Below are positions 1 through 55,154 of a DNA stretch of 64,000 bases, piece after piece. The DNA lies in assembly GCA_977017645.1 (NCBI GenBank), contig OZ360219.1:50158001-50222000 (forward strand), in the 5' to 3' direction. Under the pieces are notes generated by a model. It had not been told where the DNA came from. It made no database searches and saw nothing but the letters and a program-made list of their open reading frames with translations. Position numbers and translations under genes: made by a program. This DNA is from Torpedo marmorata. Its lineage: Eukaryota. Within the stretch, counting starts at the first letter, position 1; every line of letters starts with the position of its first letter.

Positions 1-147
1 AGATATGCTCATCTTTTTCTTTCTTTTCTGCGGGTGGTCATAGATAAGGTAAGATTCAAACGACATTGGTACTTTAAACTCATCAACAGCCACGGTATTT
101 GTAGAATCCTTCTGTAAAGAAGCAGGCTGACTCCACTTACGGCTCTT
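1..147 (-). pseudogene. ELOA: Captured Elongin A coding fragment (continues past window start)
   Basis: Manual minus-strand translation gives ...VAVDEFKVPMSFESYLIYDHPQKRKKKMSIS, matching the Elongin A motif [25 protein letters not shown] as I recall it. Upstream boundary approximate. Confidence 0.75.
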
Positions 148-735
148 ACAGATCTCTTCAACTAGAACTGCAGCCTTTTCAGCCACTGTGGTTTCTATTG
201 CCTTTTCCTGCAATTCCAGATCCAATTTTGCAACTTCCAATTCAGTCTCATTTTCTGACAGTTTATTTTGAAGCCTTTTATTAGATTCTCTCTCTGTATT
301 CAATTCTTTCAATAGGAAAGGAATTCTCCCATTATCTTCTGAGAAGTTAGTAACTTGACCTGGAGTGAAAGGGTCATGTGATGCATTTGGTACTTCTGCT
401 TTCAGCCCTGCTGTCGTAAACTCGAAGTGTCTGAATTTCTTCATCTTGCTCCTTACATTGTTGAAATGCAATATCTATTTCTTTCTGCATCGTTATTAGT
501 TGGGCCTTAAGGTACATCTTGATTGTTTTCTGTAGTCAGCTGTCTTGTGTTATTAACCAATGACTTGTTCTCTTTCAAAAGATGAATCTCCTCCTCCAAC
601 TGTATGCATCTTGATACGGCTGAAACCCTTTCCTCAATAACTGCATTCATTTCTTCAGCAGTTATTCTTTTCTTCCACTCTCTGGCTTTGCGAATTCTAT
701 CTAGAATTAAATTTCCATTCTTGTCAACTGCTCTT
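148..735 (-). pseudogene. MIPOL1: Intronless MIPOL1 retrocopy fragment with permuted exon order
   Basis: 735-411 encodes AVDKNGNLILDRIRKAREWKKRITAEEMNAVIEER...TTENNQ, then a frameshift near 515, then LKAQLITMQKEIDIAFQQCKEQDEEIQTLRVYDS. 410-148 encodes GLKAE...RIPFLLKELNTERESNKRLQNKL...LELQEKAIETTVAEKAAVLVEEI. These match recalled MIPOL1 segments IQKNGAIIVDRI...RITAEEMSALIEER...EEIQTLRVYYS and IAFLLKELD...KIAEKTAALVEEV. Confidence 0.85.
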
Positions 736-1261
736 TGGCCTTTTCTCTTGGTCACTTTCAAAACTGAAGAATCATTAGTTTCATTCCCATTTTTCTGAAA
801 ATCAGTTTTGTTTCCAAGTACAAAGTTAAAATCTTTCTGGTTACTGTATTCGTGATTATCCAATATTTCCAAGTCCCTTTTCTACATTTTGTTCTCTGAA
901 GGCAGTTGCACCAATTTTGCAGCCAATTGCTCCTTTATTCCATCAGTGCAATTTTCTGTGTTCACCAGTTTTGCAGCATCTTCTAATACTTCATTTTTAT
1001 CCATTTCTGATGAAAATAATTCCTTCAATGCTGGTTTAGATGCTTTTGATTTATTTTCGTCAGTATGATTTTCATTATTTTCACATTGATCTGTTTTCTT
1101 TTCTTCAGAAGTGGCTTTCTTATTTATAGTCTTTTGTTGCAGTGTTGACTTTTCCTTAACACGCGCTCTGAACAGAGGCTCTCCAGAAGAATCTGATTCA
1201 ATCTCAACATAAACAGAAGGAACATCTATTTTCTGCCTTTTATTTCCCTTTGTTCTCTCTG

Positions 1262-4060
1262 TTTCAGGTATGCATATTCCTCCTTTCTTTAAAGGTAATC
1301 CAATGCAATAATGGCCATCGACGAGCTTGGCAGATTTTGAGACTAAATCCAAGAACTGCTTGTCTTCTTTTGAAGATTCTTGGTCGTCACTGAGGCACTA
1401 AGGAAAGTCAGTTCTGAACTGCTGTTCACACAGCTCATCATGTTTTCACAACCGATGTCCTGTTGACACTTGTCACTGACTGCTCCTGAGTGATATTATT
1501 TCCTCCTAATGGTCCATTAATCGTCCAACCAAGCATGGTTTTGACAGTGTAAGGTCCGTCTCCCACACTCCGTATTACATCTAATGGTTCCAGAGCCTTT
1601 GGTACATCTGAGACAATCAGCATCTCTACATCAGAGCCAATTTCAGGGAGATGACCATTCCTCAGATGAGACCACTGATCGATATCGTTTTGATGTGGGA
1701 CGTTTCCTTCGTGCACAGGCATAGCCTTCTGAATGTATATGTCTGGGAGATCACAAAAATCGCTGCTGTCCAGTCCAGCAACCTCTAAGCCTGAAACAAT
1801 GCTGGTTTCAATGACCTTCCTTTGACCCATAGTTCTCAATAGAATCCTTGACCTTCTTCCCTAAAGATTAAGCTTATTCATTAGCCCCACTGTGCAAAAT
1901 GATGCAGTGCTACCTGGGTCAAGAAATGCATAAGTATGCACTGTTGCATTCCCCTTCCTGGCCTTGACTTGTACAGGCACTATTGAGAGTTTGCAGTTAT
2001 CCTCACCGGCCCCAGTAAGACCACTTGTCTGAACAGAGGCGATAGCACTGTTTTTAACTGCTTCCTTTGTTTCTGCTTTCTCATTTTCTGTTTCCTTCTT
2101 TCTTTGGTGAATATGCAGCATCCTAGGATGCTTTAAACCGCATATGTTGCAGCTGAGTCGCTTCCTGCAGTTTTTGCTGATGTGTCCTTTACACAGACAG
2201 CCAAAACATACTCCATTTTCTTTTAGGAAAGTGCTTTTCTCACTATGTGCCCTCTTTTCCAACTGTGGACACTTCTCCAAAGCATGTCCACCTCCACAGA
2301 ACAAACAGTTATTCACAGCAGGCAAACTCTCCTTTTCCTTAGTTCCTTTATCATTTTTCTTATCTGCAACTGTCACCGTGGTAGCAAAGATACTTTATTT
2401 TAATCTTGGATGAGGCTGTAACTTGGACCTCCTTCCATCTTTGCTCACTGTTTGAGTGTCTTTGATATCTCCAAATACCGTCTCTGTTGCAATCCTCACT
2501 TGCCTTACAAGGAAATCCACCATATCCTTAAAGGTAACCTTTTAATTGTGTTTTTCCTGGAATTCACAGACCACAGTTCTCCATATATCCCTCATTCGGT
2601 ATGGCAACTTCCTCATGATGACTAGCATATTAGCAGACATGTTAAGCTCATGCATGTAGTCGATATCTTCCATGGCATTACAACATCCTCTAAGAAAGAG
2701 TGTATATGCTTGTAGAGCCCTTGTGTCATCCGGTTTTATCGATGACCATGAAAGAGCTTTCTCCATATAAGCTGTAGCAATTTTATGCTCATTGCGAAAA
2801 TGCTCCTGCAGTAAAGACTTAGCCTTCCTGAATCCTCTGTCCGAGGCCATATGTAGGCAACTCCTTACAAGTTCCCTTGGCTGTTCACTTGTGTACTGTT
2901 CCAGATAATAGAGACAATCTCTGTGGTTTTTGTTCTTGCTTTCAATATTGTGTTCAAAGGATTTAATGAATGCTTGGTACTGAAGTGGGTCACCATCAAA
3001 AACTTGAACCTCCTTCTTGGGCATGGAAGAGAAACCCTGTAACTGAATTAATGATGCAGTGATTTCATTTTGCTTTCCATGACTGAGAATATGTTGCTCT
3101 GTTCACTGTTGCTTGTAGCAGGTAATGTAGCTGGAGATGTCACATGTGCATGTTCACCCGGATTTCTGATGCTTGACTGCAGTGTCAAGGGAGCTGCGGC
3201 GATAGACCAGACCCGAGCCGCAGCTCTGTCTGCGGTTGTTACCACTGGTGCTTGTGGATTGGTAACACCGTGCCTTGGGAGGATTTGTCCATGTGTATGC
3301 ATGTCTTGTAACTGTGGTACAAAAGGATCTGCCTTAACATTAAATGTTTTCCTTTCCTGTTTTCCTTTCTCAAGATATGAGTCCACACCATCAGACACTT
3401 CAGATAAGTTACTTTGAACACCGGATCTCTTTGAGGCTCCTAGTACCCTCGCCTTGGCCATAGTAGCAGCAATGTTTGCATCCAGCTCCAGCTGCTTTTT
3501 TTTCCTCCTTAGCTGCCTCCTTAGCTGCTCCTATTCCCTCCTTAGCTGTTCCTCTTTCCTCCTTAACTGCTCCTCCTGCTCTTCCTCTTGTTCTTCTAAG
3601 GAATATTTATCATCAAGCAATTTTTGTTGTGTAACAAGAGCAGCCACTTCAGCTTGAGCCTTTAAACGTGCAAATGTTGTACTGGAAACTCTGGAGCTTG
3701 ATCCAGAAGAACTTCATTTGCTTCTCCTGCTTCCAACATTTGACACACTGTCACCTGGTTGTATTTCATCCTGCATGTCAGATGTTGCCTTAATACTTGA
3801 CTCTTTCTCCAGTTTGAGTTGCATATCCTTTGCATCTTCATCTCTTCACCACCATTTTGTGAGACACCTTCAGCCATTTCCAAGTTGCTGACTTTAAATT
3901 CAGTCGATGTCTTCTGCAGTGGTTTTAATCGTGCCTCAGTGGCGATGTTGGTAGCAATGGCGGTGGCCATTTTACACTCTCCATCCAACTGTCCGCCGAG
4001 CTTGAGCACCAAGAGCGCACAACATGCGCACAAAATCAACGGTCCCCAATGGACAAGCAG
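1262..4060 (-). pseudogene. BEL/Pao gag-protease pseudogene, truncated before RT
   Basis: Fragmented ORFs: PKKEVQVFDGDPLQYQAFIKSFE (DUF1759-like gag), Cys/His knuckles (CLFCGGGHALEKC, CFGCLCKGHISKNC), protease AFLDPGSTASF, GPYTVKTMLGWTINGP, DGHYCIGLPLK; many stops and frameshifts. Confidence 0.9.
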
Positions 4061-4485: not shown

Positions 4486-4977
4486 TGTGACACGTTTCGA
4501 TATAATCTACTACTAAGTCCAGATGAGTTTTTTAACGGTTTATTAATTAACACAAAAGGACTCGTAATGTCCGTGGTAACATTCTTAATAATATCGTAAC
4601 GTGCTTTCTAACGATAACATATAACGACCAGTCTCTTCGGTAACGTAACATTTAATCCCGTCGGCAACGGTCAACAGAAAATATGCGAGCCTCACTCACA
4701 CTCTTCGTCTCTATCGATAAAGAATTCACGCCCCAACACCCGCGCCTGCACCAACCTTCCCCAGTACATGAAAGCGAAATCCATCGCGCATGTGCCAAAC
4801 GTCCGAAGAGAATAGAGCATGCATGGATGCAACATGGCGCTGGAAAAGGGCAGCGTCGACGGGAACAGCAGCAGAAACGACGGCAGCAGCCGGACATCAC
4901 AGCCTTCGGACCCCGGGATGCCGCCGATGCCTGCAACCAACCCAACAGAGGTAAACAATGAGCCTTTGGCTCTTACA
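4486..4977 (-). repeat. Probable 5' LTR of the BEL/Pao element
   Basis: Minus strand reads TGTAAGA...GTGTCACA, followed by GTAAAG upstream of gag; GC-rich block. No second LTR in the window to confirm. Confidence 0.45.
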
Positions 4978-5542
4978 GAAAGTGTTTCAGAAAGATTGAG
5001 ATAACCAACTGCAGGAAGAGGATCAGCAATCAGAACTGAGGCAAACTCAATGAAGGAACTTGGAGCAGGGAATCGAATGACGATGACGGGGTGAATAATT
5101 GTGTAGACCTAGAGATAATTTAACCCATTTAGGAATTTGCCAACCAGGGAATTTGGCTCAAGGGAATTTTGCAAACAAAAAAAATCAATTGGCCAACCTA
5201 CAGTAGTGCAGGATTTCAGAGATTTGTTACAGTTGTCCTCAGTGCATGGAACTTGCTGCTGTTTCATCTAATTTGCACAAAATAATTCCTTCTGCACTCA
5301 CAGCTATAATTTATTGACTTTTTGCCACTCCAATGATAACATAATTACAGGTTTTTCTCCCTCATTGACGCGGTGCTCATTTGATGTATTACTTTGCTTT
5401 CAAATTAAGTTTTTGTATGATAATTGTGGAATAAATTGAATAAAGATTGTGTCCTCCTTTGGACTTTCCACCACAATTCCTCTCACCTCGTTGCACCAAT
5501 GACTCATATTGTATGGGCTGAAGGGCCTGTTTACACTGTAGT

Positions 5543-8500
5543 TGTGGTAAACCACTGTAAATACCTGTATATATGTTTATGGTCGTCTGGACACTCCCCT
5601 TACTGACTGTACCTGTGGCTCCTCCCACAGACCCCTGAATAAAGGCTATTGTGCCACAGCTCCCTCCCCAGTCCAGCTCAGACGACCACCAGGAGTGTAC
5701 ATCCATTCCAATGTGAATAAAAGCCTATCAGTTCTTGCCTAACTTCTAGTCTTTGGAGTTATTGATGGTGCATCAATTTTATTCACATTGCTTTCGATAA
5801 TGGATCAATATCTGAAGCCTGAAAAGTTGGAGCTAGACCCTCAATCATCCGAGGCATCCAACGGTTTTGAACATTGGTGCGTTGTTTCAAGTCATTCTTC
5901 AGGGCTTCTGCTGCTGTCGTTCAATCTGAGGACGACAAACTGCAATTGCTGCATTCCTGGGTCGGGCCCCTGGTGTACTCGATGATCAGGTACGCTGAAT
6001 CTTACCGGGAGGCCATGGACACACTGAAAGGCCAGTACCTGAAGAAGGTAAACGAGGTCTATGTGAGACATCTCCTGGTTACCCGAAAACAGCGACCTGG
6101 GGAGTCAAGTGATGAGTACCTACGAGCCCTGCGAACCCTCGGACGGGCCTGCAACTGCACGTCCGTTATGGCCGCGACGTACACAGAGGACCTCATAGGA
6201 GGTGCCTATGACGCCGGTATCCGATCGAACTACATAAGGCAGAGACTGTTGGAGCCAGGTGAGCTTGATTTACAGAGGGCCATGGACCTAGCCGGCATGC
6301 TAGAAGTGGCCTCCAAAACACGGACGCGTACTCTGCCAATAACGCAGCCGCTGCTGTCTTGGGACGCGGGAGGGCCGCAAGCCTGTGGAACATTGCCACG
6401 TTCCGTCAGCGACTCGATCACGGCTGCTATGACCCGCAATCAGCCGAAGTGCTACTTCCGCGGGCTGGATAAGCACCCCCGGAAACGCTGCCCAGCGAAA
6501 GACACGGTCTGCGCTAACTGCAGGAAGAAGGGACACTACGCGAAAGTCTGTAGTCCCAACCACCCTCTAGACACAGCAGCGCCGCATGCGAGCAGAGGGT
6601 GCCGCCATCTTGGGCACCGCCATCTTCCCAACCAGCAGCGCCGCGTGCGAACCATGGGGGCCGCCATCTTGGGTGCTGCCATCTTGGGACCGAACACCCG
6701 AACACCGCATCACCCCCACAGAATCCGACAGCGACTCCGCACTGACCTCCATCACACTGGACCAAGGGAGCCCCCATCAACTCTCCAGATCGATGATGGA
6801 CATTGAGGTGGATGGCCTCTTTGATAGTGGGAGCACAGAGAGTTTTATACACCCCGACACGGTACAGCGTTACCGCCGCGCGGTAATGCCGGTAAGCCAC
6901 AAAAGTCTCCATGGTGTCCAAGTCCCACACAGCAGAGGTCCGCGGTTACTGTATAGTGACCCTGACTGTACTGGGCATAGAATATAAACCTTTTAAATTA
7001 CTAATCATGTCACAGCTCTGCGCGGATGTGTTACTGGGACTAGACTTCCAATGTCACCCTAAAAGCGTGACATTGGAGTACGATGGACCCCACCCCCCTT
7101 AACCATCTGTAATGCGCAGTTTGTAAACCGCCCTTCACAACTCACCCACGGAAGCCTCCCAGTTTCCCCTCCCATCGCGTCCAGCCAGCGACTCATCGAT
7201 CGCACACCGCGCGCGACCTGCGGCCTTTCTACCCTCCGGATCACCCCCCCACCGCTGTTCTCTAACCTTACCCCCGATTGAAAACCCGTGGCCACCAAAA
7301 GTAGGCAATACAGTGCCGGGGACAGGGCCTTTATCAGGTCGGAAGTGCAGCGGCTATTGAAGGAGGGGATTATTGAAGCCAGCACCAGCCCCTGGAGAGC
7401 CCAAGTGGTGGTGGTAAAGAATGGGGAGAAGAACAGGATGGTCATCGACTATAGTCAGACCATCAACAAATATATGCAGCTTGACGCGTACCCCCTCCCC
7501 CGCATACCTGACATGGTAAACCAGATCGCCCAATACTGGGTGTTCTCCACCATCGACTTAAAGTCGGCATACCACCAACTCCCCATCCGACCGGAGGACC
7601 GCCAATACACTGCCTTCGAGGCAGATGGCCGCCTCTATCACTTTCTGAGGGTTCCTTTTGGTGTCACCAACGGGGTCTCGGTCTTCCAGCAGGAGATAGA
7701 CCAAATGGTCGACCAGTACGGGCTGCAGACCACATTCCCGTATCTGGATAATATCACCATTTGCGGCCATGACTTACAGGATCATTAAGCCAACCTCCAA
7801 AAATTCCTCCAGACCGCCAAGCTCCTCAACCTTACTTATAATAAGGATAAATGCGTCTTTGGCACAACACGCCTGGCGATCCTTGGCTGCTTCGTACAGG
7901 ATGGAGTAATTGCCCAGATCCAGCCCGCATGCGCCTCCTGTTGGAACTCCCCCTTCCCCACAGCCTTAAAGCCCTGAAAAGGTGCCTGGGCTTCTTTTCC
8001 TATTATGCTCAGTGGGTCCCCAATTATGCGAACAAGGCCCGCCCCCTCGAAAAATCCACCTCTTTTCCCCTGACGTCAGAGGCCTGTGCGGCCTTCATCT
8101 GCATCAAAGCGGACATCGCCAAGGCCGCGATGCATGCTGTGGACGAATCCAGTGTAGAGCGATGCGTCCGATTTCGCCCTGGCTGCCACCCTCAACCAAG
8201 CGGGCAGACCCGTAGCTTTCTTTTCCCACACCATCCAGGGCCCAGAAATCCGACACTCCTCAGTTGAGAAAGAGGCCCAAGTCATTGTTGAGGTGGTGCG
8301 GCACTGGAGGCACTACCTCGCCGGAAAATGATTCACCTTGCTAACTGACCAACGTTCAGTTGCGTTTATGTTCAATAACCAACAGCAAGGTAAAATTAAG
8401 AACGACAAGATTCTGAGGTGGAGAATTGAACTTTCCACCTACAATTGCGATATCTTGTAAACTCAATGAGCCCCCAGATGCTCTTTCCTGCAGAACATGT

Positions 8501-9919
8501 GCTAGCGCACAAATAGACCGCCAAGAAGCCCTCCTCAGCGACCTCTGCCACCCTGGGGTCACCAGATTCTTCCATTTTATAAAAGCCCGCAACCTTCCTT
8601 ACTCCATTGAGGAGGTCAGGACCATGACCAGGAACTGCCAGATCTGTGCAGAGTGCAAACTGCACTTCTACCGACCAGACAGAGCGCACCTGATAAAAGC
8701 CACACGCCCCTTTGAACGCCTGAGCGTTGACTTCAAGTGACCCCTTCCCTCCTCTGACCGCAACGTGTACTTCCTCAACATTATTGATGTGTACTCACAT
8801 TACCCCTTCGCCATCCCCTGCCCGGACATGACAACAGCCATAGCATTCAAGGTCCTACGCAACCTTTTCCCCCTATTCGGGTACCCCTGCTATATCCATA
8901 GCGGCCGGGAGTCCTCTTTTATGAGTGATGAGCTGCGTCAGTACCTGCTGGCCAGAGGCATCGCCACGAGTAGGACCACCAGTTATAATCCCCGAGGGAA
9001 CGGGCAGGTGGAGAGGAAGAACGCTACCGTTTGGAAGGCCACCCCCTAGCCCTAAGGTCAAGAGGTCTTCCAGTCTCCCGCTGGCAAGAGGTACTCCCCG
9101 AGGCACTCCATTCAATCAGATCACTCTTGTGCACAGCCACCAATGCCACTACACATGAGAGAATGTTTTCCTTTCCTTGGAAGTCTGCTTCAGGGACCAC
9201 GTTACCGTCCTGGCTGACGTCCCCAGGGCCGGTCCTACTCCAGAGGCATGTGAGGAGCCATAAGCATGACCCACTGGTCGAAAGGGTCCATCTCCTCCAC
9301 GCCAACCCCCAATACGCCTACGTGACGTACCCTGATGGGCAGGAGGACACAGTCTCCGTTCGGGATCTGGCGCCCTCGTGAGCCACTGACACCACTGACG
9401 ACCGTCCTGCCCCCTCCCCACCCACCGCCACCCACGATGCACCGTTACCATGACAAGTGAATGCAGCTCTGGGGGATGGCTTGTCAGATACTTCGCCGGC
9501 ACACATCCACCAACACAGAGCCAACAACAACACACAGGTGGTCCAATCAGGACTGGATGCAACAGCTGCGCCGCAGCCGGTACTACGACGGTCGCAGCGG
9601 CAGACCAGACCACCTGAAAGACTGAATCTGTGAGAACTTTAATTCACTTCACCCCGCAGGACTCTTTTTTAAAAAGGAGGGGTGAATGTGGTAAACCACT
9701 GTAAATACCTGTATATATGTTCATGGTCATCTGGACACGCCCCTTACTGGCTGTACCTGTGGCTCCTCCCACAGACCCCTGAATAAAGGCTATCGTGCCA
9801 CAGCTCCCTCCCCAGTCCAGCTCAGACGACCACCAGGATTGTGCATCCATTCCAATGTGAATAAAAGCCTCTCAGTTCCTGCATAACTTCTAGTCTTTGG
9901 AGTTATTGATGGTGCATCA
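5543..9919 (+). mobile_element. Ty3/Gypsy (Mag-like) element E1, full length, degenerate
   Basis: LTRs 5543-5775 and 9687-9919 (TG...CA, about 10 differences), TSD GTAGT, PPT AAAAAGGAGGGGTGAA before the 3' LTR. Confidence 0.97.
5800..9633 (+). pseudogene. E1 gag-pol (Gag/CCHC, PR, RT, RNase H, IN), disrupted
   Basis: CANCRKKGHYAKVC, LFDSGSTESF, YLDNI, HPGVTR and NGQVER motifs spread over frameshifted ORFs. Confidence 0.93.
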
Positions 9920-16084: not shown

Positions 16085-19000
16085 TGATGAGCCCATCAAT
16101 AACTCCAAAAGACAAGAAGTTACACAAGTACTGAAAGGCTTTTATTGGCAAAAGAATGGAGCTCCATTCGTGCTGGTGATCTGTCCCGGACTGGGGGAGG
16201 AGTGGTGGCACAATGGCCTTTATTCAGGGGGTCTGTGGGAGGAGCCACCGGGACAGTCAGCAGGGGCATGTCCAGACCTATCACCCAGTCCACATTGTTT
16301 ACCACATTCACCCATCCTTTTTAAAAGAGTCCAGCGGGGTGAAGTGTATAACAATATTTACAAAGAATTAAAATCACAAATCGAGTTGATCAGGCAGTCG
16401 AGTCCGCCGCTGTGATCGGCGCAGTACTTGTGGTGATGGGGCAGGTGGCGATGCTGCCTCCTGCCTGATTTGGGGCACCAGCACGTCTGGCAATCGCGAA
16501 ACCTCGGGTGAACATGCCGGTATGTTTGGTGTCATGTTTGAATTGGGTGGTGCCTCTTGTGTGTCCTTAATGTTAGGTAAGGAGGTAACAGTAACTACGG
16601 AGTGTTCGAGGGCAGCGGCGGGTCCCAGTGCTCCTGCGGTTGCCAGGTCCCGGATGGAGACCGTGTCTTCCCGCCCATCAGGAAAAACCACATAGGCATA
16701 CTGGGGGTTCACGTGTAATAATTGGACCCTCTCGACCATCGCGGCATATTTATTGCTCCTGACATGTTTCCGGAGCAGCACTGGCCCTGAGGACGTCAGC
16801 CATGCTGGTAGGGTAGTCCCGGTGGTCGACTTTCTGGGGAAGGAAAAGAGTCTCTCATGAGGTGTAGCATTGGTGGATTTGCATAGCAGGGATCGGATAG
16901 AGTAGAGTGCCTCGGGAAGGACTTCTTGCCAGTGGGAGACTGGTAATCCCTTAGACGTGAGGGCTAAGAGTGTGGCTTTCCAGACCGTGGCGTTCTCCCT
17001 CTCCACTTGTCCATTACCCCGTGGGTTATAGCTCATGGTCCTGCTAGTCGCGATACCTTTGGCCAGCAGGTATTGGCGCAGCTCGTCACTCATAAACGAG
17101 GACCCTCGGTCGCTATGGATATAGCAGGGGTATCCAAACAATGTGAAGAATTTGCAGAGGGCCCTTATGACTGAGGTGGTAGTGGTATCGGGGCAGGGAA
17201 TGGCGAAAGGGAACCGTGAGTACTCATCAATAACGTTGAGGAAGTACACATTGCGGTCGGTGGAGGGAAGGGGGCCCTTAAAGTCGACGCTTAGTCGCTC
17301 AAATGGGCGGGTTGCTTTTATCAACTGTGCCTTGTCAGGACGGTAGAAGTGCGGTTTGCACTCTGCGCAGACTTGGCAGCTGCTGGTCATCGTCCTGACC
17401 TCTTCCAGGGAGTACGGTAGATTACGAGCTTTCACAAAGTGAAAAAGCCTGGTAACTCCGGGGTGGCAGAGGTCACAGTGGAGGGCATATAACCGGTCGA
17501 TCTGTGCGCTAGCGCACGTCCCCCGAGATAGAGCATCGGAGGGCACATTAAGCTTCCCGGGCCGATACATTATATTTTAGTTGTAGGTGGAGAGTTCGAT
17601 TCTCTACCTCAGGATTTTATCATTTTTGATTTTACCCCGCTGCTGGTTGCTGAACATGAATGCGACTGAGCGTTGGTCAGTCAGCAGGGTAAACCTTTTG
17701 CCAGCGAGATAGTGCCTCCAGTGCCTGATAGCTTCCACTATGGCTTGGGCCTCTTTCTCCACCGCTGAGTGCCGAATTTCTGGGCCTTGAAGTGTACGGG
17801 AGAAGAACGCCACCGGTCTTCCCGCCTGGTTGAGGGTAGCAACCAGTGCGAAGTCGGACGCGTCACTCTCTACTTGAAAGGGAGTGGACTCGTCCACCGC
17901 GTGCATTGTTGCTCTGGCAATGTTCCCTTTTATGAGGCTGAAAGCCTCACGTGCCTCCGTTGTAAGGGGAAAAGTGGTGGACTTGACTGGGGGCAGGCCT
18001 TGTCAGCATAATTAGGGATCCATTGAGCATAGTAAGAAAAGAAGCCCAAGCACCTTTTGAGGGCTTTGAGGGTGTGGGGAAGCGGTAGTTCCAACAGGGG
18101 GCGCATGCGGTCGGGGTCGGGGCCGATGACCCCATTCTCCACAACACACCCCAGGATAGCGAGTCGGGTGGTTCCGAACACGCACTTATCCTTGTTATAG
18201 GTGAGGTTAAGTGCTTTGGCCGCCTGGAGGAACATCCGAAGATTGTTATCGTGGTCCTGGCGATCGTGACCACAGATAGTGATTTTATCTAAGTATGGAA
18301 AAGTGGCCTTTAATTTGCATTGGTCCACCATCTTGTCCATCTCCCTCTGGAAGACGGATACCCCATTTGTGACCCCAAAGGGAATGCGCAGGAAATGATA
18401 GAGTCTGCCGTCCGCCTCGAAGGCGGTGTAGGGGCGGTCCTCCCGGCATATGGGGAGCTGGTGGTAAGCAGATTTGAGGTCTATGGTGGAGAAAAGCTTA
18501 TACTGAGCTATCTGGTTCACTATATCTGCAATGCGTGGTAGAGGGTACGCGTCAAGCTGTGTGAACCTATTGACGGTCTGACTATAATCTACCACCATCC
18601 TGTTTTTCTCCCCGTTCTTGACGCCAACCACTTGGGCCCTCCAGGGACTTGTGCTCGCCTCGATGATCCCTTCCCCAAGTAACCGCTGCACCTCTGACTT
18701 AATGAATGCCTGGTCCCTGCGCTATATCTCCTGCTTTTGGTTGCCACGGGTTTACAACCAGGGGTCAGGTTGGCGAACAGCGTTGGGGGCGGGATCTTGA
18801 GGGTGGATAGACCGCAAGTAGTGTGGTGTGACAAAATATTTCTGCCGTTTTTAAGAAATTGGTGATTACCGACAGTAATCGGTGGGAGGGGCCCGTCATA
18901 CTCCATAGTCACACTTTGTTGTGGGGAAGCGGTAGTTCCAACAGGGGGCGCATGCGGTCGGGGTCGGGGCCGATGACCCCGTTCTCCACAACACACCCCA

Positions 19001-20716
19001 GGATAGCGAGTCGGGTGGTTCCGAACACGCACTTATCCTTGTTATAGGTGAGGTTAAGTGCTTTGGCCGCCTGGAGGAACATCCGAAGATTGTTATCGTG
19101 GTCCTGGCCGTCGTGACCGCAGATAGTGATGTTATCTAAGTATGGAAAAGTGGCCTTTAATTTGCATTGGTCCACCATCCTGTCCATCTCCCTCTGGAAG
19201 ACGGATACCCCATTTGTGACCCCAAAGGGAACGTGCAGGAAATGATAGAGTCTGCCGTCCGCCTCGAAGGCGGTGTAGGGGCGGTCCTCCTGGCTGTGTC
19301 GTGAGGCCACATCGCTGTACCATGTCTGGGTGGATGAAGCTCTCTGTGCTGCCTGTGTCGAACAGGCAGTTTGTTCTGTGTCCCTTGACCATGATGTCCA
19401 TCATCGACCTCGAGAGTTGGTGGGGTGCACTTTGGTTGAGTGTAACTGACGCCAACGTTGGGTCGCTGTCTTGATCCGACGCGATGGGGTGCCAGGTGTT
19501 CCGGGGTGGCGGCACCCTGTGTTGGCGCGATGGCGTGGAACAAAATGGCCGCTCCCATGACTCGCACGTGTTGGCCACGGGTAGGTAAGATGGCGGCGAC
19601 AGAAGTGACGACACACAAGATGGCCGCCCCCATACTTCGCACGTGTTGGCCGTGGCCGCGGGTAGGTAAGATGGCAGAGACGGAAGTGACGACACATAAG
19701 ATGGCCGCCACCAAGCCTCGCACGCGGCGCTGCTCGATCCCGCTCGCGGTTTTGATCTACAGACCTTAGCGAAGTGGCCTTTCTTCCCGCAGCTGGAGCA
19801 GGTCGCTTCTCGGGCCGGGCAACGTTTCCGGGGGTGCTTCTCAAGTCCGCAGAAATAGCATTTCTCGGGCTCGCGACTGATGGCAGCAGTGGTCGATTCA
19901 CTGGCATGGTGGGGGGTCGGCGGCATCCACGGAGCCTGCTGGAGATCGCACGCCTGGATAGCATCCAAGTTCTGTAGCGCGGCCTCCAGCGTATCGGCCA
20001 GCTCGATCGCGGAACACAAGGTGGCACACATACACTGACCTGGTCCCCGTAACGAAAGTGTCTCTCACTAGGAGCTCTGCGTGTTGTTCGGCCGTCAGTC
20101 CACGGCAGTCGCAGGCCCGCACGAGTGTTTGTAGGGCCCGTACGAACTCCGCGCTCGGCTCCCCGGGCCGCTGCTGCCACGTCGCTAGCCTGTGTCTCGC
20201 ATATACGGTATTCACAGGCCATATATACTGTCTTTTAAGGGCATTCATCACATCTTCATAAGTCTGCAGATCTCGGATCATAGAGTAGACTCGTGGGCTT
20301 ACCCTAGAGAGGAGGACCTTGCGTTTTGCGGCGTCTTCTTGCACTTTGATCTCCTCCAGGAACGATTCAAAACAGGCTAGCCAGAGTTCGAAGGCATTGC
20401 CAGCTTCCGGTGTTTGTGGGTCGAGGTCCAGTTTGTCTGGTCTCAAGACATTCTCCATGTTTACAATTTTGCCAATAAAATTGATGAGCCCATCAATAAC
20501 TCCAAAAGACTAGAAGTTACTTAAGAACTGAAAGGCTTTTATTAGCAAAAGAATGGAGCGACATTCATGCTGGTGATCTGTCCCGGACTGGGAGAGGAGC
20601 AGTGGCACAATGGCCTTTATTCAGGGGGTCTGTGGGCGGAGCTACCGGGACAGTCAGCAGAGGACATGTCCAGACATATCACCCAGCCCACAACCCATAC
20701 ATAGTGGTTTACCACA
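16085..20716 (-). mobile_element. Gypsy element E2, full length, internally rearranged
   Basis: LTRs 16085-16306 and 20482-20716; TSD AGGTC/AGTTC; PPT adjacent to 16306. Confidence 0.96.
16374..20458 (-). pseudogene. E2 gag-pol, disrupted, with duplicated RT segment
   Basis: ORF pieces for Gag (MENVLRPDKLDLDP), CCHC, PR (LFDTGSTESF), RT, RNase H and a 398-aa IN piece. Confidence 0.93.
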
Positions 20717-21595: not shown

Positions 21596-22474
21596 TCAGC
21601 ACTGCTCCAGTAGGTCAGCACTGCTCCAGTAGGTCTGCACTGCTCCAGTAGGTCTGCACTGCTCCAGTAGGTCAGCACTGCTCCAGTAGGCCTGCACTGC
21701 TCCAGTAGGTCTGCACTGCTCCAGTAGGTCTGCACTGCTCCAGTAGGTCTGCACTGCTCCAATAGGTCTGCACTGCTCCAGTAGGTCAGCACTGCTCCAG
21801 TAGGTCTGCACTGCTCCAGTAGGTCAGCACTGCTCCAGTAGGTCTGCACTGCTCCAGTAGGTCAGCACTGCTCCAGTAGGTCTGCACTGCTCCAGTAGGT
21901 CAGCACTGCTCCAGTAGGTCTGCATTGCTCCAGTAGGTCAGCACTGCTCCAGTAGGTCTGCACTGCTCCAGTAGGTCAGCACTGCTCCAGTAGGCCTGCA
22001 CTGCTCCAGTAGGTCAGCACTGCTCCAGTAGGCCTGCACTGCTCCAGTAGGCCTGCACTGCTCCAGTAGGTCAGCACTGCTCCAGTAGGTCTGCACTGCT
22101 CCAGTAGGTCAGCACTGCTCCAGTAGGTCTGCACTGCTCCAGTAGGTCAGCACTGCTCCAGTAGGTCTGCACTGCTCCAGTAGGTCAGCACTGCTCCAGT
22201 AGGTCTGCACTGCTCCAGTAGGTCAGCACTGCTCCAGTAGGCCTGCACTGCTCCAGTAGGCCTGCACTGCTCCAGTAGGTCAGCACTGCTCCAGTAGGCC
22301 TGCACTGCTCCAGTAGGCCTGCACTGCTCCAGTAGGTCTGCACTGCTCCAGTAGACCTGCACTGCTCCAGTAAGCCTGCACTGCTCCAGTAGGTCAGCAC
22401 TGCTCCAGTAGGCCTGCACTGCTCCAGTAGGCCTGCACTGCTCCAGTAGGTCAGCACTGCTCCAGTAGGCCTGC
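21596..22474. repeat. 20-bp minisatellite (GCACTGCTCCAGTAGG[T/C]C[T/A])n, left part, about 44 units
   Basis: Direct tandem repeats, no spacers. Confidence 0.98.
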
Positions 22475-25400
22475 TGTGGTAAACCACTGTTTGTGTATTG
22501 TATGTACTGCTGTCTGTCCCAGCGACTCCTCTCCCCTCCTTTGGGTGTCCAGGTAATCCCTCCCCTTTTCTCACCCGAATAAAGGCCTGTGTGCTACGGC
22601 TCCGCCCACACTCCGGGATAGATCTGCAAGTCCACTGTTGGTCTGTTTTATGTGTATTAAAGCCTATGGTTCGTTAACCCTCTCACAGTCTATTGAGTGC
22701 TAATTGATAGGCATATCAATTTAATACACATAAGAAAAATTATGGAAGGCGCCCTCCGACCGGACCGACTGGACATCGACCCTTTAGCTCCTGATGCTGG
22801 CCATGCATTCGAACACTGGCTACGCTGCCTCCGATCGTTCTCAAAGGAGGTCAAGGCCGAAAGCGACGAGCAGAAACTAGAGGTCCTCGTATCTAGGGTA
22901 AGCCCTCGGTTGTATTCAACCATCTGGAAATGCGAAACGTACGACGAGGCGATGGAGGCCCTGAGAAAGATCTATGTGACCCCTGTTAATGAGGTCTACG
23001 CAAGGTACAGACTATCGTTGCGAAAACAGCGGGCCGGGGAGTCAATAGTGGACTTTGTCAGGGACATCCAGTCCCTTGTGCGAGCGTGCGCCTGTAAAGC
23101 GCTGACTGAAGAACAACATGTTGATCTGCTGGAGAGGGACACCTTTATTATGGGGATGAGGTCAGTATACGTACGCCAGCGGCTGCTGGAGCACTCTGAC
23201 CTCGATCTCCGTTCTGCGGTGGCGATGGCTCGCACGCTGGAGTCCGCGCTGCAGAACTCCGACGCGATGCAGACGCGGGACCCCCAGGCTAATGCGTGGA
23301 TCGCCCCGTTCCCCAGCCCCACCAATCCAACAGTGGCCGCTGTGGCCCGCGACCCAATTGCTGCCGCCGCTACCCGCGACCCGACCGCTACCGACGCTAC
23401 TCTCACCGCCGCAGCTGTTAATCGCGAGCCCGAGAAGTGCTACTTCTGCGGGCTCGACAAGCATACGAGGAAACGCTGCCCGGCCCGCGACGCGACTTGT
23501 TCCAACTGCGGCAAGAAAGGCCACTTCGCGAAGGCCTGCCGCTCCAAGCCGCACGCGGGCCCGAGTAGTGCCGCGTGCGAGAGATGGGAGCGGCCATCTT
23601 GCAGACTGGCACTTCCGGTGCCGACCGCGTGTGAGGAGTGGAAGCGGCCATCTTTCATGCTGGCACTTCCGGCGCCGCCATCTCAGAGCAGTACCTCGTT
23701 ACTTCCTGCACTTCCGGCGCCGCCATTTTGTACAGAGACCTCCAGCGATACTTGCAACCCACGGGAGCGGCCATTTTTAAAGACCTCGGACCAAGACGAC
23801 TTCATCCCAACTTTGGCATCCATCACACTCGACCAGAACGTTCCCCACTAGCTGACAAGATCCATGATGGACATACTGGTCGAGGGACACAAGATAACGT
23901 GTTTATTCGACACTGGCAGCACTGAGAGCTTTATCCACCCGGATACTGTTCAACGCTGTGGCCTAACGATCATACCGGTAAGCCAGAGGGTGGCCATGGC
24001 GTCGGGGTCCCACACAACAGACATCCAGGGGGCGTGTGTGGCGAACATTGTGGTACAAGGGACTGAGTACCGGCAATTTTCCTTGTTTGTCATGAACCGT
24101 TTGTGTGCGCCGGTGTTACTGGGTTTGGATTTTCAGAGCCATTTGCAGAGCGTTACAATGCGGTATGACGGTCCTCTCCCCGCGATCACTGTAGCCAAAC
24201 ACCAGTTCCTGGATAGCACGCCCGAAACCACCTGTGGTCTCTCCACCCTTAAGATCTCGCCTCCGTCGTTGTTTGCGAACCTGACCCCGGACTGTAGGCC
24301 TGTGGCAACTAAAAGCAAGCATTACAGTGCCGAGGACAGAGCATTTATCAAGACGGAGGTGCAGAGACTGCTACAGGAAGGGATTATAGAGAAGAGTAAT
24401 AGTCCCTGGAGAGCCCAGGTGGTTGTTGTAAAAGGGGCCAAGAGCAGAATGGTGGTGGGCTACAGCCAAACCATTAACAGGTTTACGCTACTAGACGCAT
24501 ACCCGCTACCACGGATAGCAGAGATGGTGAACCAAATTGCCCAATACCGTCTCTTTTCCACCATCGACTTGAAATCGGCATATCACCAGCTCCCTATCCG
24601 TCGGGAGGACCGTTCATACACCGCGTTCGAGGCAGATGGCAGGCTGTTCCAATTCCTGCGCCTTCCGTTTGGTGTTACTAATGGTGTTTCTGTTTCAAGC
24701 GGGAGATGGACAGGATTGTGGACCATTACAAACTTAAAGCCACTTTCCCATATCTTGACGACATTACCATCTGTGGTTATGATCGTCAGGACCATGACAA
24801 CAACCTCCGGAGGTTCCTGCAGGCGGCCAAAGCTCTAAACCTCACGTATAACAAAGAAAAATGCGTGTTTGGTACCACTCGCCTCGCTATTTTGGGGTAT
24901 GTGGTCGAGAACGGGGTAATTAGACCAGACCCCGAACGCATGCGGCCCCTGCTGGAACTTCCGCTCCCCACCAATCCCAGAGCCCTTAAACGATGCCTCG
25001 GGTTCTTTTCCTATTATGCCCAATGGGTCCCAAATTATGCGGATAAGGCCCGACCCCTTGTGAAATCCACTGCATTTCCCCTTGCTTCGGAGGCACGTAA
25101 GGCGTTCGACCTTATAAAAGGGGACATTGCGTGAGCAACAATGCACGCAGTGGATGAGGAGACACCTTTCCAGGTGGAGAGTGACGCATCGGACTTCGCG
25201 CTGGCTGCTACCCTCAACCAGGCGGGAAGGCCGGTGGCATTTTTCTCTCGAACCCTTCAGGGCCCCGAAATTCGGCACTCAGCGGTGGAGAAGGAAGCCC
25301 AGGCCATAGTGGAGGCCATCAGGCATTGGAGGCACTATCTCGCCGGTAAGCATTTTACCCTGTTGACAGATCAACGCTCTGTGGCATTCATGTTCAACAA

Positions 25401-27070
25401 TCAGCAGCGGGGTAAGATCAAAAATGACAAGATCATGAGGTGGAGAATAGAGCTCTCCACCTACAATTACGACATCATGTACCAGCCCGGGAAGCTCAAT
25501 GAGCCCTCCGATGCTCTATCCCGGGGATCATGCGCCAGCGCGCAGGTCGACCGATTACACGCCCTACATGACGACCTATGCCACCCAGGAATTACCAGGC
25601 TCTTTCACTTCGTGAAGTCACAGTACCTGCCATATTCCCTGGAAAAGGTCAGGACAATGATCAGCAGTTGCCGGGTTTGCGCGGAGTGCAAACCCCAGTT
25701 CTACCGCCCCGACAAGGCACAGCTGATCAAAGCCACTCGCCCCTTTGAACGTCTCAGCATTGACTTCAAGGGGCCCCTTCCCTCCACGAACCGCAATGTG
25801 TACTTTCTGAACATTATTGACGAGTACTCGCGGTTCCCCTTCGCCATTCCCTGCCCCGACACTTCGGCTGCCTCAATCATAAAAGCTCTTCGCCAGGTAT
25901 TTACGCTGTTCGGCTTCCCGAACTACATTCATAGCGACCGGGGATCAGCTTTTATGAGTGAGGAGCTGCGCCAGTACCTGCTGACCCGGGGCATCGCCAC
26001 TAGTAGGACCACCGCATACAACCCCCGAGGTAATGGACAGGTGGAAAGGGAGAACGCCACTGTCTGGAAGGCGGCGCTCCTGGCTCTCAAGTCTATGGGA
26101 CTGCCGGTTTCCCGCTGGCAAGATGTTCTCCCCGAAGCCCTCCATTCGATACGGTCCTTACTGTGCACAGCCACCAATGTAACGCCTCATGAGAGATTTT
26201 TCTCCTTCTCTAGGAGGTCGAACACCGGAACCGCCCTGCCTGCCTGGCTGACGTCTCCGGGGCCGGTGCTGCTCCGCAACCACCTCCGGAGCAGCAAATA
26301 TGAGCCCGCGGTCCAGAGGGTGCAGTTAGCGCACGCTAACCCGCAGTACGCCTACGTGGTCTTCCCGGATGGGAGAGAGGACACGGTCTCAATTCGGGAC
26401 CTGGCGCCCGCGGGAGCGCCGGAGGAACCTCTCGACGGGCAAGACCACTCGCTGCGGCCCCTCCCTATTCCCTCTTCTACAACGTCAGACCAGGCACCCT
26501 CTTGAGTGCTAATTGATAGGCATATCAATTTAATACACATAAGAAAAATTATGGAAGGCGCCCTCGATGGAACCCACAATCCTGGCATCTCACCCAGCAC
26601 CACAGGAGGAGGCGACGGCCTTGCCATCTTCCCCTGCACCACAACCCGCACCCAGGGTACCCCCTGCACCACAACCCGCACCCAGGGTACTGCGCAGGTC
26701 ACAAAGGCGAGCCAAACCACCGGATCGCCTTGACCTGTAAATTATGACTGTAAATATTTTGAATTCCTGTAGCGATTGTATTGTGGCCACTTCACCCCGC
26801 TGGACTCTTTTAAAAGGAGGGGTGAATGTGGTAAACCACTGTTTGTGTATTGTATGTACTGCTGTCTGTCCCGGCAACTCCTCTCCCCTCCTTTGGGTGT
26901 CCAGGTAATCCCTCCCCTTTTCTCACCCGAATAAAGGCCTGTGTGCTACGGCTCCGCCCACAGTCCGGGATAGATCTGCAGCTCCACTGTTGGTCTGTTT
27001 TATGTGTATTAAAGCCTATGGTTCGTTAACCCTCTCACAATCTCTTGAGTGCTAATTGATAGGCATATCA
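22475..27070 (+). mobile_element. Gypsy element E3, full length, inserted in the minisatellite
   Basis: LTRs 22475-22718 and 26827-27070 (244 bp, about 7 differences); TSD CCTGC. Confidence 0.97.
22742..26740 (+). pseudogene. E3 gag-pol with two stops, one frameshift and an insertion in the IN tail
   Basis: Stops at 23849 and 25132, frameshift near 24697; YLDD, RNase H (ESDASDF) and IN (HPGITR, NGQVERE). Confidence 0.94.
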
Positions 27071-27211
27071 CCTGCACTGCTCCAGTAGGTCAGCACTGCT
27101 CCAGTAGGCCTGCACTGCTCCAGTAGGCCTGCACTGCTCCAGTAGGCCTGCACTGCTCCAGTAGGTCAGCACTGCTCCAGTAGGTCAGCACTGCTCCAGT
27201 AGGTCTGCACT
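27071..27211. repeat. 20-bp minisatellite, right part, about 7 units
   Basis: Same unit continues in phase after the E3 TSD. Confidence 0.97.
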
Positions 27212-27249
27212 TCTCATAAAGAAGGGAGGCTCAGAAAGGAGAAAAAAAT

Positions 27250-43899: not shown

Positions 43900-44083
43900 A
43901 AAACACGAAAATCTGTAGACACCGTGGTTGAAGTAAAAAACACAAAATGCTGGAGAAACTCAGCAGGTCAAACAGTGTCTTTTATGTAGCAAAGGTAGAA
44001 ATACGTCAGGTATTTCTACCTTTGCTATATAAAAGACACTGTTTGACCTGCTGAGTTTCTCCAGCATTTTGTGTTTTTTTATT
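43900..44083. mobile_element. Palindromic Penelope-like insertion
   Basis: 17-bp TSD TGGATCTTTTAATATGT; about 70-bp inverted arms with a 5-nt spacer. Confidence 0.85.
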
Positions 44084-48500: not shown

Positions 48501-48948
48501 AAAAAGAATAGATTTAAATCCAGAGAGGAACAGAGTGGCAGAATATATTGATAGGTAGTTCTTATAATCACCAAATGAGAGAGTGCGTTCAATCCAATTA
48601 TCATTAATATCAGGCCACAATGTGATCAAACCTTTTCCCTATTTAAAGCAATGAACTTAGAAAGGAAATTGGAAGAAGTGTTGAACCAGATGTTAAAGGA
48701 TCTTTAGTCAAGAGTGTAGGTGGGAGAAAATATACAAAGGAATGATCAATGGGGAATATACAAAAAGAGCAAATAGGATATAGAGCTTGGTGTTGTGGAA
48801 TAGGGATTCTAGAGTGGGAATATAAATCTGGAACTCGTTTTGACGGGGCAAGGAAAATTCAGGGTTAGATTTAAAACTAGTTATAAGAACTTAACCAAGG
48901 TAATGTCGATAGGGAATCTATTGGTATGGCAAAATCTGATAGGCAAAG

Positions 48949-51900
48949 TGATAGGCCTATCAATAAACACTCGAAGGCTATGAGCGTGAGTGAACCATAG
49001 ACTTTTATTACCTTAGAACTAAGCAGTACTTTCCAGCAGATCTGACCCGGACTGGAGGAGTGGCCGTGATAACAGTGGCCTTTATTCAGGTGAGGAAAGG
49101 GGAGGGATTACCTGGACATCCAAGGGAGGGGAGGGAGTAGACATCGGGACAGCCTGCAGTACATACCTACACCACAATACACAAACAGTGGTTTACCACA
49201 TTCACCCCTCCTTTTTTAAAAAAGAGTCCTGCGGGGTGACGTGACCACTCTAATTAGTTACAGAAAACACACAGTAAATATAATACAGAAATATATATAC
49301 AAGCCCTTTTTACAGGTCAAGGCGATCCGGCGGTCGAATTTGCCGCTGTGACCTGCGTAGTGGCGGGGCGGGTTGTGGTAATGGGGGAGATGGTAGGGTT
49401 GTCTGTGCAGTCGCCTCCTGCCTGGCCTCTTGGAATGTCTGTGGTCCCGGCGAGGGGGCTGGGTCTGGCACACTGGGTGGGGAATTAGAATTAGAGGGGT
49501 TTTGCAGCAGGTGGTAATTAGAGGGGTTTTGCAGCAGGTGGTCTTGCCCGTCGGAATGTTCTGCCGGTGCCCCAGCGGGCGCCAGATCCCGAATCGAGAC
49601 AGTGTCCTCTCGCCCATCAGGGAAGACCACGTACGCATATTGTGGGTTGGCGTGCGCTAACTGCACCCTCTGGACTGCCGGCTCATATTTGCTGCTCCGA
49701 AGGTGATTGCAGAGCAGCACTGGTCCCGGGGACGTCAGCCAGGCAGGTAGGGCGGTTCCGGTGGTCGACTTCCTGGGGAAGGAAAAAAATCGTTCATGAG
49801 GGGTTGCGTTGGTGGATGTGCACAGCAGGGACCGGATAGAGTGGAGGGCTTCGGGGAGGACCTCCTGCCAGCGGGAAACCGGCCATCCCTTGGACTTGAG
49901 AGCCAAGAGCGCGGCCTTCCATACAGTAGCGTTCTCCCTTTCCACCTGTCCATTCCCCCGGGGGTTGTATCCGGTGGTCCTGCTAGTGGCGATGCCTCGG
50001 GCCTGCAGGTACCGTCGCAGCTCCTCACTCATAAAAGCTGCTCCCCGGTCGCTATGTATGTAGTTTGGGAAACCAAACAGCGCGAATACCTGGTGGAGAG
50101 CTTTTATGGTTGAGGTAGCCGAAGTGTCGGGGCAGGGGATGGCAAAGGGGAACCGCGAGTACTCATCGATAATGTTTAAGAAGTACACGTTGCGGTTCGT
50201 GGAGGGAAGGGGCCCCTTGAAGTCAATACTGAGACGTTCAAAAGGGCGAGTGGCTTTGATCAGCTGTGCCCTGTCGGGGCGGTAGAACTGAGGTTTGCAC
50301 TCCGCGCAAACTCGGCAACCTCTGATCAATGTCCTGACCTCTTCCAGGGAGTATGGCAGGTTCTGTGACTTCACAAAGTGAAAGAGCCTGGTAATCCCTG
50401 GGTGGCAGAGGGCGTCGTGTAGGGCATGTAATCGGTCGATCTGCGCGCTGGCGCATGATCCCCGGGATAGAGCATCGGAGGGCTCATTGAGCTTCCCGGG
50501 CCGGTAAAGGATGTCGTAATTGTAGGTGGAGAGTTCTATTCTCCACCTCATGATGTTATCATTTTTGATCTTACCCCGCTGCTGGTTGTTGAACATAAAT
50601 GCCACCGAGCGTTGGTCGGTCAGCAGGGTAAAATGCTTGCCGGCGAGATAGTGCCTCCAGTGCCTGATTGCTTCCACTATGGCCTGGGCTTCTTTCTCTA
50701 CCGCGGAGTGCCGAATTTCGGGGCCTTGAAGGGTCCGTGAGAAAAACGCCACCGGCCTTCCCGCCTGGTTGAGGGTAGCAGCCAGCGCGAAGTCCGATGC
50801 GTCGCTCTCTACCTGAAAAGGTATCTCCTCATCCATCGCGTGCATTGTTGCTCGAGCAATGTCCCCTTTTATAAGGTCAAAGGCCTTACATGCCTCCGAA
50901 TCAAGGGGAAATGCGGTGGATTTCACCAGGGGTCGGGCCTTATCAGCATAATTTGGTACCCACTGCGCATAATATGAGAAGAACCCGAGGCATCATTTGA
51001 GTGCTTTGGGAGTGGAGGGAAGTGGAAGTTCCAGCAGGGGCCGCATGCGGTCGGGGTCGGGCCCAATCACCCCGTTCTCTACCACATACCCCAAAATAGC
51101 GAGGCGTGTGGTACCAAACACACATTTTTCTTTATTATATGTCAGGTTTAGTGATTTGGCCGCCTGCAGGAACCTCCGGAGGTTGTTGTCGTGGTCCTGA
51201 CGATCCAGCCCACAGATGGTAATATCGTCCAGGTACGGGAAAGTGGCCTTAAGTTTATAGTGGTCCACAATCCTATCCAACTCCCGCTGAAACACAGAAA
51301 CTCCATTAGTAACCCCGAACGGAACCCGCAGGAAATGGAACAGCCTACCATCTGCCTCGAACGCAGTGTACTGTCGGTCCTCCCTTCGGATAGGGAGCTG
51401 GTGATATGCGGATTTCAGGTCTATAGTGGAAAAGACCCTGTATTGGGCGATCTGATTAACAATATCCGCTATTCGTGGTAGCGGGTATGCGTCCAACTGT
51501 GTGAATCGATTAATCGTCTGACTGTAATCCACCACCATCCTACTCTTGGCCCCTTTTACTACGACTACCTGGGCCCTCCAGGGACTATTACTCCTCTCAA
51601 TAATCCCCTCCTGTAATAATCTCTGCACCTCCGTCTTGATAAACGCCCTGTCCCCCGAACTGTATCGCCTGCTCTTGGTTGCCACAGGCTTACAGTCAGG
51701 GGTCAGGTTGGCGAATAGCGACGGAGGCGAGATCTTAAGAGTGGAGAGGCCACAGGTAGTTTGGGGCGTGTTATTCAGGAACTGGTGGTTTACTACAGTG
51801 ATCGCAGGGTGGGGACCGTCATACCGCATCGTGACACTCCGTAAGTGACTCTGAAAATCGAGTCCTAATAAGACAGGTGCACACAACCGATTCATAATAA

Positions 51901-54720: not shown

Positions 54721-55154
54721 CTGTTCTCCTGTTTTTTTCTTCCCTCTCACTTTCCCTCATCCCTCGGATCCTTTTCCTTTTTTCCCTGCTTTGTCACACA
54801 CAAACACACACACACACACACCTTCCTTCCTCCAGCTCTCCACACCCTTCCCTTCTTTTCTCATGTTCACAAGATCAGAAAATATGTAGCAGAAGTAGGC
54901 CAATGGGCCCATAGAGTCTGCTCTGACATTTTATCATGAGCTGATCCATCCTCCCACTCAGCCCCACTCCCAGCCTTCTCGCTGTAACCCTTGATGCCCT
55001 GACTAATCAAATACCTGTCAATCTCTGCCTTAAAGACACCCAATGACCTCTCTTCCACAGCCGCCTGTGGCTACATGTTCCACAGACTCACGACCCTCTG
55101 ACTAAAGAAATGTTTCCACATCTCTGTTTTAAATTAACGCTCTTTTATCCTGAT

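Follow-up and report, generated by a model that had tools for sequence, protein, structure and literature searches.

Host gene fragments and a reversed MIPOL1 join of back-splice type in place of pol in a probable non-autonomous BEL/Pao family of rays

Several retrotransposons with long terminal repeats (LTRs) are known to carry host sequence. Tan et al. (2016) described LTR-mediated retrocopies that include a two-gene chimera in the Pao element BATUMI, a BEL18_AG retrocopy, and the four-gene "Super" retrocopy of mouse (PMC5131818). The same article gives a template-switching model together with its hallmarks (PMC5131818). Dong et al. (2016) reported mouse pseudogenes of the circular RNA (circRNA) circRFWD2, which number 33 copies and have LTR element sequence of MMERVK10C-int adjacent to them (PMC4897178). 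Here we analyze an element at the start of a 64,000-nucleotide (nt) stretch of Torpedo marmorata DNA (assembly GCA_977017645.1, contig OZ360219.1, positions 50,158,001 to 50,222,000), referred to as the window. This BEL/Pao element continues, shortly after the start of pol, into fragments of three host genes, BRCA1, MIPOL1, and Elongin A (ELOA), and the two MIPOL1 pieces stand in reversed order. We consider it probable that the element belongs to a non-autonomous BEL/Pao family of rays that arose by template switching onto RNAs packaged together, including a circular one, and then spread in trans.

The BEL/Pao part and its host cargo

All features of the element are on the minus strand. A candidate 5′ LTR of 414 base pairs (bp) at 4488..4901 was recognized by sequence reading; it runs from TG to CA, has AATAAA near its 3′ end, is 46% GC, and contains 32 CpG. 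No second copy of it was found in the 64-kb window, and with its partner unseen it is a candidate only. The 64-kb window has no tRNA gene, and no primer-binding site was identified. A decayed gag-protease region with the start of pol follows at 1264..3830 and is broken by stops and frameshifts. Within it are a DUF1759 domain of gag at ~3000-2566 (PF03564; E = 9.4e-9), three Cys/His knuckles read in frame at ~2307-2110, and a DPGS protease motif found by frame reading at ~1920-1909. A direct Pfam scan of the protease region gave no match; Atlas clusters bearing DUF1758/Asp_protease matched at 0.92-0.94, with the family present on 11-28% of cluster members. We take the Pfam families DUF1759 and DUF1758 to be linked to BEL/Pao. 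Two features of BEL/Pao membership are present, namely a gag with DUF1759 and a triple Cys/His knuckle, followed by a BEL-type aspartic protease.

Four public sequencing runs, available as contigs only, were aligned to positions 1-1600 at 82% likeness. They gave 13,118 aligned contigs for X1 (organism A), 2,846 for X5 (organism C), 265 for X10 (organism D), and 216 for X11 (organism C), the last being an RNA run by guess only; among the runs listed as sharing words with the window, none is recorded as RNA. Bridging of joins was counted in 32 listed pieces of 16,696, with at least 31 letters required on both sides.

P0057, a related BEL pol protein, aligned to 1441-1860 at 78% identity and continued at 63% to about 1265, up to ...LPLK..CIP. 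In X5, 31 contigs diverged from the window at 1264, and what follows in them reads as pol, its hand translation matching P0057. The alignment and the departing contigs place the end of BEL homology at 1264. The sequence from 1263 to 1 is host sequence, and reverse transcriptase (RT), RNase H, and integrase are missing from the visible part of the element. Because host sequence stands where these domains would be, the element is a BEL/Pao derivative and not an autonomous member.

Along the element, the cargo consists of BRCA1, MIPOL1 amino acids (aa) 444-553, MIPOL1 aa 295-380, a 30-nt filler, and Elongin A, all sense to the BEL part. The best protein matches for all three genes came from the electric ray Narcine bancroftii. 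The BEL-to-cargo join at 1245..1263 comprises ~19 nt, in frame, that are either the start of BRCA1 or filler. The BRCA1 fragment at ~1244-735 (E = 2.7e-32; 63-78% identity by part) corresponds to P0051 aa ~204-412 and P0052 aa ~166-390 and is in the same frame as pol; a PDB search with this piece gave no match. Relative to the two ray proteins P0051 and P0052, it has lost about 47 codons in frame, and a 10-nt repeat at 970..979 bounds the gap. Contigs with loose ends at the deletion were found in X5 (970, n = 22; 979, n = 18) and X1 (972, n = 100), listed pieces 7, 23, 28, and 29 span the site, and deleted and undeleted forms both occur in X1 and in X5. Two short stretches at 1050-1130 (~4 and ~5 residues) are shared by the window and P0052 but missing from P0051, and some X5 and X1 pieces have 14-17 gap letters there. 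The public gene model P0051 (Narcine BRCA1 isoform X2) has Gypsy gag sequence instead of the RING domain in aa 1-185, which reflects either an error of annotation or the genuine exonisation of an element.

The filler at 149-120 comprises ten codons without a stop and keeps the frame. No source for it was found in the window, where the best other match was 18/30. The Elongin A fragment at 119-1 matches P0049 aa 378-415 at 77% identity (E = 2.9e-6; PDB Elongin-A match, E = 0.0085), is one codon shorter than the parent, and runs off the window. A parental-type contig leaves the window at 119 with a hand translation equal to the P0049 sequence, and 27 X5 contigs extend past position 6, where their hand translation is ELOA-like. 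A Pfam scan did not name the cargo, whose fragments are coiled-coil or disordered pieces. The original prediction had placed the end of BEL homology at ~1262, close to the point found here, and had rightly named MIPOL1 and Elongin A and read all pieces as sense to the element. Its "unidentified coding-like block" is BRCA1, and the direct in-frame MIPOL1-ELOA join that it proposed is interrupted by the filler.

The manner of capture was judged from the cargo as a whole. As in LTR-mediated retrocopies, an element open reading frame (ORF) is replaced by partial host RNA, the MIPOL1 part is intronless, and poly(A) is absent. No A-run of at least 6 was found on the element strand in 1-1400. Loss of the MIPOL1 introns, the absence of a poly(A) run, replacement of pol in place, and the sense orientation of all pieces together make template switching the best explanation. 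Microsimilarity at switch points would be 4-5 nt at BRCA1/MIPOL1, as judged from proteins and not from parental DNA; at the BRCA1 deletion it is 10 nt. Processed pseudogenes made independently by long interspersed nuclear elements (LINEs) and nested serially in a BEL copy could be imagined instead, given that LINE-type RT fragments occur elsewhere in the window and repeat-dense regions gather insertions. Such copies are very improbable, however, with no A-run of at least 6 in the cargo, with each fragment internal and lacking the 3′ end where LINE copying starts, and with all pieces sense, in frame, and joined in ways that recur in other organisms.

The reversed MIPOL1 join

MIPOL1 was matched with E = 3.6e-34. 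The downstream piece (411..737) covers P0001 aa 444-553 at 85% and 94% identity, and the upstream piece (151..410) covers P0001 aa 295-380 with 91% identity over 79 aa; the later part of the protein comes first along the element. The original prediction had named the gene but not noticed that it is present as two pieces in reversed order. By the boundaries found in isoform pairs, the downstream piece terminates at the end of an exon, and the exon joins 486/487 and 521/522 within it have no introns. Since the boundaries after aa 486 and 521 are crossed without introns, this piece came from spliced RNA.

The two pieces meet in frame at 408..412, where an exon end, AG (412-411), is followed by CAG (410-408), the long form of a tandem (NAGNAG) acceptor. 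Six of 37 near-identical MIPOL1 isoform pairs skip the exon directly after aa 552 (after YY), which indicates an exon end at AG 412-411. P0011 and P0013 are isoforms from the same shark species, and one Ser immediately ahead of RAE is all that distinguishes them at this place. The isoform-comparison script missed this one-residue acceptor difference, and direct alignment of P0011 and P0013 showed it. A one-Ser difference between isoforms is the mark of a tandem acceptor, and the window has CAG at the acceptor position, reading Ser. The intron side of the acceptor is inferred from the isoforms. Parental-type contigs in X11 depart at 410, continuing in the next MIPOL1 exon, and at 409, continuing in the preceding exon (one contig each), and at both loose ends the hand translation equals P0001 in 10/10 residues.

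The join is exactly exon to exon and, as far as the sequence can tell, carries a back-splice signature. Two features of circRNA-derived pseudogenes were found: a reversed exon-exon join at what appear to be true splice sites and no parental sequence from outside the circle. The presumed circle comprises aa 295-553, both outer MIPOL1 ends (aa 444 and 380) fall inside it, and the copied length is less than one lap. On these findings, one of the captured templates was most probably not an mRNA but a circular RNA.

The same LTR capture could also have drawn on a linear source of the reversed join, either a jump from one MIPOL1 mRNA to another at the AG(C) common to both exon ends or a transcript made by trans-splicing or exon repetition. 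Contig loose ends show that both parental sites share 2-3 nt. According to Tan et al., template switches favor microsimilarity and one recurrent switch site lies near exon junctions (PMC5131818); non-colinear joins can have other origins as well (PMC4897178). A random jump with both ends no more than 2 nt from an exon boundary has, however, a chance of about 3e-4 to 9e-4 (for 7 to 12 boundaries), and the join reproduces the long tandem-acceptor form. Moreover, the outer ends at aa 444 and 380 match no exon boundary found in isoform pairs and both lie within the circle. A linear source is accordingly improbable, and a circular template remains the preferred reading of the join.

Reading frames, copies in other organisms, and proposed origin

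The reading frames of the element and its cargo agree. In tblastn alignments, one common frame runs through pol and BRCA1 into the beginning of MIPOL1, the back-splice-type join and the filler-ELOA join keep the host frames, and all four joins are in frame. The predicted open frame from 408 to 1 proved correct as a frame, with 474-1 open; its MIPOL1 match holds only from 387 down, with a frameshift near 387. Breaks in the window copy all lie inside fragments, as a stop at 882-884 in BRCA1 and frameshifts near 508-516 and 387 in MIPOL1. At place 883, more than 98% of the aligned depth has another letter in all four runs, and many contigs differ at both frameshift sites; the breaks in the window copy therefore look like later decay. 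Also in frame are the 47-codon BRCA1 deletion, the one-codon ELOA deletion, and two skips in X1 (183 and 1075; hand-read loose ends), and single contigs with small frame-breaking indels occur too. The naive chance of three cross-gene joins in frame is 1/27, and the true chance is higher because microhomology between coding sequences favors frame. The pattern suggests that an open frame may have been kept by selection.

The joins were sought in the public runs. Among the listed pieces, the BEL/BRCA1 join was bridged by 3/32 (X5, X11), the BRCA1/MIPOL1 join by 7/32 (X5, X10, X11), the back-splice-type join by 5/32 (X10, X11), and the MIPOL1/filler/ELOA join by 5/32 (X1, X5, X11). Each of the four joins was bridged across the runs of the three related organisms A, C, and D taken together; secondary copies share switch points. 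The share of the window's words in any single run was at most 0.34, i.e., an exact copy was not seen independently, which is the one observation in favor of an assembly chimera or a chance similarity. That explanation is negligible in the face of E values down to 1e-34, and it is refuted by the bridging of each join in independent public runs.

Variation among contigs points to many copies. Filler places 140 and 146 have variants in 34 and 22 X1 contigs and in 43 and 35 X5 contigs, respectively, and since the filler is absent from every parent, variants in tens of contigs are far more than one locus gives. Listed X1 and X5 pieces diverge from the window by roughly 8-16%. Forty-seven X1 contigs skip from 183 to ELOA sequence further along. 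Over 1135-1242, depth falls ~1000-fold in X1 and to zero in X10, and five X1 contigs leave at 1124 into sequence without a match in the window. Beyond 1124, a derived subfamily may have a different upstream part or additional cargo, and the summed depth in X1 hints at a much larger subfamily. On the evidence of the contigs, the chimera appears to be an amplified multi-species ray family and not a single locus.

A single capture followed by satellite-like tandem or segmental duplication, instead of retrotransposition, could also have multiplied the chimera. In X1, bins differ ~2000-fold in summed depth, some parts of the cargo greatly exceeding the BEL part, and the 3′ LTR is unseen. Against this, the window has one candidate LTR and no second copy within 64 kb, depth in X5 and X11 is similar in magnitude over BEL and cargo, and deletions like the one at the 10-nt repeat are made by reverse transcription. 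We regard duplication as an unlikely route, somewhat less credible than a linear source for the MIPOL1 join.

Template switching followed by retrotransposition thus remains the reading that we prefer. In the germ line of an ancestor, the RT of a BEL particle would have left the element RNA just past the protease/pol linker and switched successively to a spliced BRCA1 mRNA, a MIPOL1 circRNA, the 30-nt filler, and an Elongin A mRNA. The circle would have been copied for less than one lap, across its back-splice join, and synthesis would presumably have returned to the 3′ LTR. RT, RNase H, and integrase would thereby have been replaced, with the LTR and the gag end retained. Intact relatives may have mobilized the chimera in trans, with subfamilies bearing different internal deletions spreading. 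Capture may have taken one or several rounds, and the window copy would have decayed afterwards. Serial template switching, as originally proposed, is upheld as the best explanation; the accompanying ideas that every template was mRNA and that the chimera is a single locus are not.

Several observations weigh against this account. The 3′ LTR, a target-site duplication, and a 3′ pol remnant were not seen, the cargo running off the window. Loss of introns is shown for MIPOL1 only, and no microhomology was shown at BEL/BRCA1 or at the filler, where no parental DNA was compared. A linear exon-repeat transcript would yield an identical MIPOL1 join. Among the 32 pieces listed of 16,696, none from X1 bridged the BEL/BRCA1, BRCA1/MIPOL1, or back-splice-type join. 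Summed depth reaches 2 million in X1 bins, compared with 14-49 for listed single contigs, and gives no copy number. No annotated chimeric protein was found in protein databases.

The protein searches returned the separate genes. Among 551 candidates, one protein search gave 50 matches (49 MIPOL1 and 1 ELOA); 3 of 242 candidates in another were BRCA1, and 5 of 1535 in a third were 4 MIPOL1 and 1 BEL. All 31 representative proteins matched inside query residues 1-92, i.e., the MIPOL1 part. In the JGI metagenomes, 351 pattern matches were found and 0 were confirmed.

Neighboring elements and comparison with known systems

The window is repeat-dense vertebrate DNA, and its remainder is mostly Gypsy-type elements and RT fragments. 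A complete-looking Gypsy-type element lies on the plus strand at 5543-9919, with 233-nt LTRs that are 96% alike, broken ORFs, and an RT match. The ~640 bp between its LTR and the BEL candidate LTR (4902-5540) include a plus-strand coding-like stretch near 4897-5100; a minus-strand frame tested in 4902-5540 gave no Pfam match. Four further Gypsy-type elements, at 16085-20692, 22475-27071, 48945-53487, and 55153-59883, are 73-83% alike, and their paired LTRs are 92-99% alike. One unbroken frame of 1397 codons at 55500-59690 has protease, RT, RNase H, and integrase. A tandem array with a 19-nt period, at 21596-22474 and 27070-27215, lies on either side of the element at 22475-27070 and was apparently split by its insertion. 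An internal duplication of 375 nt (18073-18447 and 18920-19294; 97.6% alike) lies within Gypsy pol, and a near-perfect palindrome of 145 nt (96.6%) lies at 43935-44079.

The ray element resembles BEL/Pao retrotransposons in its LTR, its gag with DUF1759 and three Cys/His knuckles, and its DUF1758-type protease; unlike the autonomous members, it has no RT, RNase H, or integrase in its visible part (PMC3118150). The precedents for its other features are known separately, and their combination was not found in print. Our literature search, with most subscription journals and the supplements of PMC4897178 and PMC5131818 outside it, found no description of the ray element, no circRNA borne by a BEL/Pao element, and no back-splice join within a multi-gene LTR chimera; no later mechanism paper on circRFWD2 was found, most subscription journals again lying outside the search. 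If our reading is correct, the element would preserve, as a fossil, how RNA was back-spliced and a tandem acceptor chosen in the germ line of an ancestral ray. Small RNAs directed against BRCA1, MIPOL1, and ELOA could arise from a repeat family that contains their coding sequence. In ray data, the family will mimic circRNA reads and confuse annotation.

With the LTR-mediated retrocopies of Tan et al., the ray element shares replacement of an internal ORF by partial mRNAs, several parents, absence of poly(A), sense orientation, and secondary retroposition as a non-autonomous element (PMC5131818). Those cases are young and present in one or a few copies, and the main text of that article does not use the word "circular", whereas the ray element is many-copy, occurs in several ray species, and has a back-splice-type join (PMC5131818).

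Maize Bs1 is likewise an LTR element with three host-gene fragments in a chimeric gene and with switch points common to all copies (PMC5131818, PMC13317346). It differs in being a plant element of 1-5 copies that is transcribed and translated, and the passages describing it mention no circular template; the ray family has far more copies (PMC5131818, PMC13317346). The consistency of the frame is a hint that non-autonomous elements are selected for open frames. It is possible, if doubtful, that the ray family is a vertebrate counterpart of Bs1, its gag-protease-BRCA1-circMIPOL1-Elongin A frame having been selected while the element was active, before very high copy number was reached in some rays, with BRCA1 and Elongin A sequence multiplied along with it; the family would then be direct anatomical evidence that LTR particles reverse-transcribe circRNAs. 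Selection in that case would have acted either because open frames stabilize or package element RNA or because the fusion protein had some role.

Like the circRFWD2 pseudogenes, the ray element has a non-colinear exon-exon join, no poly(A), many copies, and LTR element sequence near (PMC4897178). For circRFWD2 the mechanism was called mysterious and the link to LTRs is an enrichment in the flanks, whereas in the ray, a cartilaginous fish, the presumed circle lies between two host fragments that replace BEL/Pao pol (PMC4897178). The route by which circRNAs return to genomes was left open in that work (PMC4897178). A back-splice-type join amid captured host fragments in the place of pol would tie such an event to template switching in LTR particles and makes the question testable.

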